DNA from: Escherichia coli
GTDB lineage: Bacteria; Pseudomonadota; Gammaproteobacteria; Enterobacterales; Enterobacteriaceae
NCBI RefSeq assembly: GCF_022846255.1
Contig: NZ_AP025682.1
Reading direction: 5' to 3' (one strand)
Length of the DNA stretch: 64,000 nt
Part shown: piece by piece, positions 26,301 to 29,300 of the stretch
Layout: each line of letters starts with the position of its first letter
Numbering within the stretch: position 1 is the first letter of the stretch
Made by a program: the position numbers

Positions 26301-29300
26301 GCTGCACTCGGTCGGTCTTGATGCGCTGGCGACCGCCAACGACATGAACCGTAACGTACTCTGCACCTCGAACCCTTACGAGTCGCAGCTGCATGCGGAA
26401 GCATATGAATGGGCGAAGAAAATTTCTGAACATCTGCTGCCTCGTACCCGCGCGTATGCGGAGATCTGGCTCGATCAGGAAAAAGTCGCCACTACTGATG
26501 AAGAGCCGATCCTTGGTCAGACCTACCTGCCGCGTAAGTTCAAAACCACGGTAGTGATCCCGCCGCAGAACGATATCGATCTGCACGCCAACGACATGAA
26601 CTTCGTGGCGATCGCCGAAAACGGCAAGCTGGTGGGCTTTAACCTGCTGGTGGGCGGTGGGCTTTCCATCGAACACGGCAACAAGAAAACCTACGCCCGC
26701 ACGGCGAGTGAGTTTGGCTATCTGCCGCTGGAGCATACGCTGGCGGTGGCGGAAGCCGTCGTGACAACTCAGCGTGACTGGGGTAACCGAACCGATCGTA
26801 AAAATGCCAAAACCAAATACACGCTGGAGCGCGTGGGGGTTGAGACGTTTAAAGCGGAAGTTGAACGTCGCGCGGGGATCAAATTCGAGCCGATTCGCCC
26901 GTATGAGTTTACCGGACGCGGAGATCGTATTGGCTGGGTTAAGGGCATTGATGATAACTGGCACCTGACGCTGTTTATCGAAAATGGTCGCATTCTTGAT
27001 TATCCGGGACGTCCGCTGAAAACCGGCTTGCTGGAGATCGCGAAGATCCACAAAGGTGATTTCCGCATTACGGCGAACCAGAATCTGATCATCGCCGGCG
27101 TGCCGGAAAGCGAGAAAGCGAAGATCGAGAAGATCGCCAAAGAAAGCGGGTTAATGAATGCCGTCACGCCGCAGCGTGAAAACTCAATGGCCTGCGTGTC
27201 ATTCCCGACTTGCCCGCTGGCGATGGCGGAAGCGGAGCGTTTCCTGCCGTCTTTTATCGACAACATCGATAATTTAATGGCGAAACATGGTGTCAGCGAT
27301 GAGCATATCGTGATGCGTGTAACAGGCTGCCCGAACGGTTGTGGTCGCGCGATGCTGGCGGAAGTGGGTCTGGTGGGGAAAGCGCCGGGTCGCTACAACC
27401 TGCATCTTGGCGGCAACCGCATTGGGACACGTATCCCACGGATGTATAAAGAAAACATCACCGAGCCGGAAATCCTGGCGTCGCTTGATGAACTGATAGG
27501 GCGCTGGGCGAAAGAGCGCGAAGTGGGTGAAGGCTTCGGCGACTTTACGGTGCGTGCGGGCATCATTCGCCCGGTGCTCGATCCGGCGCGCGATTTGTGG
27601 GATTAACCATCAGCCCGGTCTTGTAGGCCTGATAAGATGTGTAAGCGTTGCATCAGGCAAGGCAAACAGTGAGGAACTTATGTCCAAACTCGATCTAAAC
27701 GCCCTGAACGAACTGCCAAAGGTAGACCGGATTCTGGCGCTGGCGGAAACTAACGCCCAACTGGAAAAACTGGACGCTGAAGGCCGCGTAGCCTGGGCGC
27801 TGGATAATCTGCCCGGTGAATATGTACTTTCTTCCAGCTTTGGCATTCAGGCGGCGGTGAGTCTGCATTTGGTGAATCAGATTCGCCCGGATATTCCAGT
27901 GATCCTCACCGATACCGGCTATCTGTTCCCGGAAACCTACCGCTTTATTGACGAGTTAACGGACAAACTCAAGCTCAACCTGAAAGTGTACCGTGCTACC
28001 GAAAGCGCCGCCTGGCAGGAAGCACGCTACGGCAAACTGTGGGAGCAGGGCGTTGAAGGCATTGAAAAGTACAATGACATCAACAAAGTCGAACCGATGA
28101 ACCGGGCGCTGAAAGAACTGAATGCGCAAACCTGGTTTGCTGGCCTGCGCCGTGAACAATCCGGCAGTCGCGCCAATTTACCGGTGCTGGCAATTCAGCG
28201 TGGCGTATTTAAAGTGCTGCCGATTATCGACTGGGATAACCGAACTATTTATCAGTACCTGCAAAAACATGGCCTGAAATATCACCCATTATGGGATGAA
28301 GGATATTTATCGGTGGGCGATACCCATACAACCCGTAAATGGGAACCCGGCATGGCGGAAGAAGAAACGCGTTTCTTTGGCTTAAAAAGGGAATGTGGAT
28401 TACACGAAGGGTAAATATTGCCGGATAAATTAAACGCCTCTGTCAGAAATGATGGGGGCGTTTTTATTTTGCGAGCAGCATTCCGGCATTTAAACGAGAA
28501 CGTCGCAGGGAGAATTAACAGGTATAGAATGGCATTGGGTGCTTGAGGCTGTCTGGCGTTAAGCATTCGCGAGGTTCCAGATGGACAAAAGCCCCAGGCG
28601 ATATTTCTATCAACCTGAGGCCTACGTTCGAACCTAAGCAATTCGGATGTTAGTCTCTTCTTTGCAGGGAGGCAAGACATGCTGACAAAATATGCCCTTG
28701 TGGCAATCATCGTACTGTGTTGTACAGTACTGGGATTCACGTTGATGGTAGGCGACTCGTTGTGTGAGTTGAGTATCAGAGAACGTGGTATGGAGTTTAA
28801 GGCAGTTCTCGCTTACGAATCGAAGAAGTAGCCACCACGCGGGGTAAAACCCCGCGTACTGAATTGTGATGGTTTGGTCTCCTGCACCCTTTTTTATACT
28901 CTGTTTCTGGTGGCATTGATTTCCTGCAGGCAAGGGAGTAATCATTTCAAACCCATTAAGATGCCTTCGCCAGCTCCTTCACCAACGGTAGCATTATCCG
29001 CATAACATCACGGCAGCGACGTTCTATTCTTCCAGGAAGTGCCTTATCAATATGCTGTTGATTATCCAGTCTTACGTCATGCCAGCTATTTCCCGCAGGG
29101 AATGCGGCTGTTTTTGCGCGTTGCTGATAACCATCCTTATTGCCAAGATTCCAGTTAGTCGCTTCCACCGAAAGTACAGTAATACCGGCTTTGTCGAATA
29201 TTTCTGCGTCATTACAACACCCGGTGCCTTTCGGATAGTTTTTATTCAAACCTGGATTTGTGGTGGCGGCAATTCCATGGCTGCGGGCAATTGCCAGCGC

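Follow-up and report, generated by a model that had tools for sequence, protein, structure and literature searches.

The genes cysJ (24089–25894), cysI (25894–27606) and cysH (27680–28414) follow one another on the plus strand of a 64,000-nucleotide (64-kb) stretch of the Escherichia coli contig NZ_AP025682.1 (assembly GCF_022846255.1), which is the window analysed here at its full length. After them comes iap on the minus strand, and after iap come cysD, cysN and cysC; these gene assignments agree with the annotation of a collinear complete genome (99% identity). The stop codon of cysH ends at 28414 and that of iap starts at 28956, leaving a gap of 541 bp (28415–28955). In E. coli K-12 this pair of genes is separated by 9,959 bp, a space that holds the type I-E genes cas3, casA, casB, cas7e, cas5e, cas6e, cas1e and cas2e together with a 763-bp CRISPR array. 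A preliminary description of this DNA had placed the K-12 cas operon and array between cysH and iap and had put the gap here at about 540 bp; the first statement is correct, and the open reading frame (ORF) borders give the exact value for the second. With high confidence we identify the interval as the cas-less allele of the E. coli CRISPR-I (iap–cysH) locus: the genes from cas3 to cas2, the leader and the CRISPR2.1 array are absent without trace, and the toxin–antitoxin locus hokX/sokX is intact. Read from cysH, the gap contains the cysH terminator, hokX/sokX, 48 bp characteristic of cas-less alleles and an 11-bp iap flank, as follows.

27680–28414, plus strand: cysH (3′-phosphoadenosine 5′-phosphosulfate reductase), the left border; a 244-aa ORF recognised by its translation and annotated as cysH in the identical stretch of NZ_CP033762.1
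28432–28470, plus strand: intrinsic terminator of cysH (14-bp stem, 4-nt loop, T-run), from a terminator scan; fold of −20 kcal/mol, z = −5.6
28525–28530, plus strand: putative −10 box of hok, TAGAAT, read from the sequence, 6 nt upstream of the predicted transcript start
28537–28896, plus strand: predicted full-length hok (hokX) mRNA of about 360 nt, from the start of the Rfam match, the fold and the end of homology with cas-bearing loci
28537–28694, plus strand: match to the Rfam model RF01794 'sok' over its full length (1–157), with E = 1.2e-24 and 112 bits, where the gathering score is 59
28537–28550, plus strand: tac element, at the 5′ end of the predicted hok mRNA
28581–28639, minus strand: sokX antisense RNA (antitoxin) with a short 5′ tail, a long hairpin and a U-run, from homology and fold
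28647–28675, minus strand: putative Sok promoter, picked by eye, with −35 TTGCCT (28675–28670), a 17-nt spacer and −10 TAACAT (28652–28647)
28647–28685, plus strand: 12-codon upstream ORF, from translation, its stop overlapping the hok start (ATGCTGA)
28679–28831, plus strand: hok (hokX) toxin ORF, 50 aa (Pfam HOK_GEF PF01848, E = 6.3e-10, model 1–42 of 42)
28837–28857, plus strand: GC-rich hairpin (CGCGGGGTAAAACCCCGCG) in the hok 3′ untranslated region, from the fold
28876–28889, plus strand: fbi element, at the 3′ end of the predicted hok mRNA, followed by a T-run at 28890–28895
28897–28944, no strand: 48 bp specific to the cas-less allele, from strain comparison; in other strains a cas-plus-array cassette of about 10 kb stands here
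28945–28955, no strand: iap-proximal flank common to cas-bearing strains, where it follows the degenerate terminal repeat of the array, from alignment
28956–29993, minus strand: iap (alkaline phosphatase isozyme conversion aminopeptidase), the right border; a 345-aa ORF recognised by its translation and by iap annotation

The absence of CRISPR-Cas is seen with repeat and gene queries alike. Even when three mismatches are tolerated, the 29-bp type I-E repeat is not found in the 64-kb window; the same holds for its palindromic core at up to one mismatch and for the type I-F repeat. According to Tandem Repeats Finder and a direct-repeat search, neither the gap nor the window contains repeats at regular spacing. 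When 16 Cas proteins (all eight, in both E. coli type I-E variants) were compared with the window by tblastn, only noise came up (best E = 0.16; E = 3.3 or worse within the gap), and searching the window by blastn with the two complete cas-plus-array regions gave no match at E ≤ 0.1. Local alignment of the consensus and degenerate terminal repeats to the gap stayed at chance level, the scores being equalled by 52 to 219 of 300 shuffles. No repeat or cas remnant was found in the 48-bp junction (28897–28944), and no transposase ORF in the gap. Most strains that retain part of CRISPR-I keep the degenerate terminal repeat and a spacer beside iap; here these are gone, and homology resumes 11 bp before the iap stop codon, past that repeat. 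The preliminary description is therefore borne out in that the gap has no cas ORFs, that the 29-bp repeat and any regularly spaced repeat are lacking (now for the whole window), that alignment brings up neither degenerate repeats nor cas remnants, and that the strain is without type I-E at its canonical site, with both the cas operon and the CRISPR2.1 array missing. It described the gap only by what is lacking there, and overlooked the complete hokX/sokX locus that fills most of the interval. Compared with the K-12 type I-E locus, the flanking genes, the cysH terminator and the sokX region are the same, whereas 9.7 kb comprising cas3, casABCDE, cas1, cas2, the leader, the array and its degenerate terminal repeat are missing here.

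One candidate for a repeat remnant was considered and rejected. The GC-rich hairpin at 28837–28857 resembles the 3′ half of the type I-E repeat at 15 of 17 positions with one gap, but its score was equalled by 52 of 300 shuffles, and it recurs, within the hok 3′ untranslated region, at an unchanged position in E. coli strains that carry cas genes and in Pseudocitrobacter.

The second type I-E array site of E. coli, between ygcE and queE, also lies inside the window, and no repeats are present there. Where K-12 has this second array, a sucrose-utilisation cluster (5970–12455) stands between queE (5214–5885) and ygcE (12620–14098), encoding a LacI-type regulator, a sucrose-6-phosphate hydrolase, a phosphotransferase system IIBC component, a porin and a kinase; such a cluster at ygcE–queE has been reported for many uropathogenic strains (PMC12736100). 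The only sizeable tandem repeat reported in the window, at 38013–38103, is an imperfect 24-bp/9-bp repeat in a Gln/Pro-rich stretch inside nlpD.

Both the absence of CRISPR-Cas and the hok/sok content of the interval are already known, and are ordinary for the lineage. The interval is 100% identical to that of strain NRG857c, which belongs to phylogroup B2 (PMC7232551), and some B2 genomes have been described as lacking CRISPR1 and all Ecoli-subtype cas homologues (Touchon and Rocha 2010, PMC2886076). Almendros et al. (2014, PMC3903273) catalogued nine arrangements of the CRISPR-I locus, named the cas-less one 'arrangement B', and gave hok sok in all strains except those with cas-E2. A Region B without CRISPR-Cas has been assigned to groups V–IX, and hok/sokX adjoins cysH in 90% of strains, with sokX alone in K-12-like strains (PMC12736100); in addition, hok-5 of NRG857c has been identified as a hokX homologue in the cysH–iap intergenic region (PMC7232551). 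The earlier statement that loss of type I-E is described for some E. coli lineages is in line with this literature, in which strains without cas-E are mostly B2 (PMC2886076, PMC3903273, PMC12736100). Our interval has the features of arrangement B, namely cysH, hok/sok and iap without cas-E genes, leader, array or insertion sequence (IS), and between it and arrangement B strains such as NRG857c, which have the same gene order and likewise lack cas-E genes, leader and CRISPR2.1 array, we detect no difference.

The allele is also common. In a set of 5,426 complete E. coli genomes, an unbroken match to 80% or more of a 941-bp query spanning the gap is present in 1,105, and one to 80% or more of the 141-bp junction in 1,129 (about 21%); in the remaining genomes the query falls into two parts, one on the hok side and one on the iap side. 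A rough reading of evenly spaced ranking rows, which is an impression rather than a count, suggests that about 20% of genomes are cas-less, that somewhat more than half have hok followed by other sequence, and that about 20% are K-12-like without the hok ORF.

Comparison with cas-bearing strains places the borders of the missing cassette precisely. Against an E1-type strain, in which cas3 is inverted, homology runs from cysH to 28896, the base before the cas3 stop codon. Against K-12 (E2-type), homology stops at 28681; the K-12-type cas3 cassette begins at this point, the start codon of hok, and K-12 has thus kept sokX and lost hok. On the iap side, 28945 is the first position that can again be aligned with K-12 and the E1-type strain. 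The left breakpoint of every arrangement directly follows GCACCCTTTTTT(A), with which the hok transcript ends at its 3′ side.

Loci outside E. coli were drawn from species-representative genomes scanned with an exact 24-mer of the hok leader, which gave eight loci for the cross-species comparison. The order cysH–hok–iap without cas genes occurs in E. whittamii, Escherichia sp. E1V33, Pseudocitrobacter faecalis and a Pseudocitrobacter metagenome-assembled genome (MAG). In the cas-less Pseudocitrobacter loci (L008, 1365–3627; L009, 10904–13046), Hok is 98%, CysH 97–100% and Iap 81% identical to the E. coli proteins, and the hok–iap junction differs from that of E. coli and is shorter.

A third type I-E cassette follows hok in Escherichia sp. 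MOD1-EC7003 (L015, 1460–4456) and Pseudocitrobacter vendiensis (L011, 2166–3772). Its cas3 is co-oriented with hok and encodes a protein that shares 44% identity with Cas3 of the E1 type and 28% with that of the K-12 type. Upstream of this cas3 the two genomes have almost identical DNA, which suggests that the third-type cassette was recently transferred between genera. A further locus, on JAEWTL010000007.1, is labelled as a Bacillota MAG and combines the sokX region with a K-12-type cas3 (99% amino-acid identity); the metagenome bin was most likely contaminated with E. coli DNA.

The 48 bp at 28897–28944 have no counterpart in the K-12-type, E1-type or third-type loci examined. The same segment is conserved with 4–9 substitutions in E. 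coli XJ34, where the cas-less junction stands on a K-12-like cysH-side background, and in E. whittamii and E1V33, the latter a cryptic-clade genome. This conservation in two other Escherichia species, and the occurrence of the junction in XJ34 on a different background, point to an old cas-less haplotype that extends across Escherichia species, stemming from an ancestral empty site or an ancient loss, and that is swapped with cas cassettes by homologous recombination in the hok/sok and iap flanks; that the end of the hok transcript is the exact starting point of three different type I-E cassettes, and that MOD1-EC7003 and P. vendiensis are nearly identical upstream of the third-type cas3, speaks in the same direction. 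Yet such a pattern would also arise if the cas-less allele had passed from one species to another, the non-E. coli genomes sampled are a handful obtained with an exact 24-mer seed, and an exact 24-mer taken from the 48-bp junction has no match in the species-representative genome collection. We place this explanation just short of even chances.

The published model for arrangement B is instead a simple deletion inside E. coli, in which the cas-E1 cassette and array were removed from 'arrangement A' (Almendros et al. 2014; the IG6–IG3 interval deleted). In that study (PMC3903273) this is inferred as the most parsimonious path, and the course of the E1-type homology, which reaches the base before the cas3 stop codon and takes up again 11 bp before iap, agrees with it, although the segments defined here may map differently onto the IG names of that study. 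The 48-bp segment, however, is not reconciled with such a model: since it is missing from the cas-bearing loci examined, the cas-less allele is not simply what a deletion in those sequences would leave, and the recurrence of the segment in E. whittamii and E1V33, together with the cysH–hok–iap order without cas genes in P. faecalis, further weakens the case for an event inside E. coli. A simple deletion is accordingly a possibility that we entertain only tentatively.

What we draw from this comparison is a modest nuance to the published account: within a small sample, the cas-less allele does not look like an obvious plain deletion of the sampled cas-bearing alleles, and would fit either an old haplotype or exchange between species through conserved flanks. 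Going further, we put forward as a conjecture, which is rather more apt to fail than to hold, that the cas-less allele with its 48-bp junction may be an old cross-Escherichia haplotype and not a B2-specific deletion, that the three type I-E cassette types may be interchangeable inserts whose left boundary is always the hok 3′ end, and that hok/sok may act as a recombination anchor for the gain, loss and swapping of CRISPR-Cas.

The hok/sok locus itself has the elements of a type I toxin–antitoxin system. Only RF01794 reaches a family's gathering score among the Rfam matches in the window, and because the match lies on the hok-coding strand, the model in effect describes the hok mRNA leader that is targeted by Sok. 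In the fold of 28537–28897, the first 14 nt pair with 28876–28889 in both the minimum-free-energy and the centroid structure (−133 kcal/mol, z = −4.3; 0 of 100 shuffles as good). Such a tac–fbi fold-back is the hallmark of full-length hok mRNAs, and the pairing is preserved in XJ34, E. whittamii and E1V33, where a G-U pair has become G-C. On the minus strand, the K-12 noncoding RNA sokX (b4701, NC_000913.3) maps to 28634–28581 with 96% identity over 54 nt, and the fold of the sokX RNA here (−24.3 kcal/mol, z = −3.6) contains a terminator-like hairpin followed by UUUU. Upstream of the whole locus, the cysH terminator is kept across Escherichia and Pseudocitrobacter.

For both RNAs we infer promoters from motifs and their conservation. 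The putative hok promoter has its TAGAAT at 28525–28530 invariant in six loci of two genera, with a weak putative −35 box, and the putative Sok promoter at 28647–28675 agrees with the consensus at 8 of 12 positions, below the scan threshold, and is invariant in all compared loci including K-12. The sole match of the promoter scan (28682–28710, plus strand) lies inside the hok ORF, at the rate expected by chance, and was set aside.

The 50-aa toxin is preceded by a Shine-Dalgarno sequence, GGGAGG (28667–28672), 6 nt upstream, and is the product WP_000956458.1, named 'Hok/Gef family protein' in identical genomes. The PADLOC defence-system models gave no match to it. Across 10 loci from at least four Escherichia species plus Pseudocitrobacter, dN/dS of the ORF is about 0.08, which argues that the toxin is maintained: 11 codons vary by synonymous changes only and 3 by amino-acid changes, and the protein is 96–100% conserved over the two genera. 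The hok ORF is under purifying selection across both, which lends indirect support to a toxin that would kill by membrane damage when Sok is depleted.

Several points weigh against this picture of a CRISPR-free strain carrying an intact hok/sok. The absence of CRISPR-Cas is that of the 64-kb window and not of the genome; type I-F at clpA–infA is common in B2. At its threshold, the promoter scan called neither the hok nor the Sok promoter. NCBIfam models match Hok below their cut-offs (HokA with 53 bits against 89, the Hok subfamily with 39.5 against 73), which makes it a distinct subgroup. The canonical mok frame is not seen, as no ORF of at least 20 aa spans the hok start, and without a long mok the translational control may differ from that of plasmid R1, or hok may be poorly translated. 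With the long mok missing, any coupling must use the 12-codon ORF, a possible short substitute for the mok coupling frame, or else the hok Shine-Dalgarno sequence is used directly.

The founding type I toxin–antitoxin system is hok/sok (parB) of plasmid R1. Like it, the present locus has a Hok/Gef toxin of about 50 aa, an RF01794 leader, and a 5′–3′ fold-back of the mRNA, and it would share a predicted cis-antisense RNA with a putative promoter and a terminator-like hairpin of its own. It differs from R1 in being chromosomal and in having the 12-codon upstream ORF in place of a long mok overlapping hok. Its site downstream of cysH is the same as that of sokX (b4701) in K-12, hokX in E. coli B and hok-5 in NRG857c; K-12 sokX stands without a hok ORF, whereas the locus here is complete.

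By analogy with R1, from which transcription, processing, toxicity and physiological role are all extrapolated, the locus could operate in this way. A weak promoter would give rise to a stable hok mRNA of about 360 nt, and the pairing of 28537–28550 with 28876–28889 would keep it untranslatable and closed to Sok. Slow trimming of the 3′ end would release this tac–fbi lock and let the mRNA refold. SokX (28639 to 28581, minus strand), a short and unstable RNA for which a separate promoter and terminator are predicted, would then bind the leader by base pairing, blocking translation and triggering decay; once SokX is depleted, the 50-aa membrane toxin Hok would be made. Post-segregational killing has no obvious meaning on a chromosome. 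The locus evidently does not prevent loss of the adjoining CRISPR-Cas cassette, because hok/sok persists here without the cassette.

Alternatively, hok/sok at this site could be an inactive relic, like the hok loci of K-12, with no present function. The lack of a canonical mok frame would fit such a relic, and there are precedents, in that K-12 carries inactivated hok loci and an IS interrupts hokX of E. coli B (PMC7232551), and K-12 has lost the hok ORF at this very site and keeps sokX only. Here, however, all recognisable elements are intact, with no IS or frameshift, the protein conservation and the predominance of synonymous changes described above span 10 loci in two genera, and hok-5 of NRG857c is listed as an intact locus (PMC7232551), so that we consider a relic unlikely. 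A last alternative, that the short gap is an assembly artefact in which a collapsed or mis-joined contig hides the cas region, can be dismissed, as nothing speaks in its favour, the identical junction occurs in more than 1,100 independently finished genomes and the window is collinear with a complete genome at 99% identity over the 41 kb around the site.

Elsewhere in the window, an IS4-family transposase (2603–3949, minus strand) lies between eno and queE, beside ygcG (4048–4965). Of the 5,426 complete E. coli genomes, only 69 have this arrangement; in strain FDAARGOS_536, which is otherwise nearly identical, the region is different.

The strain thus falls among the roughly one fifth of sequenced E. 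coli, mostly of phylogroup B2, that are without type I-E at iap–cysH. The gap between cysH and iap is a functional-looking toxin–antitoxin locus and not spacer DNA, and the value of recognising it lies mainly in correct annotation. Beyond this, the exact breakpoints, one where the hok transcript ends and the other 11 bp before iap, may help studies of CRISPR-Cas turnover in Escherichia, for which the 48-bp signature of the cas-less allele, shared across species, may also be useful.

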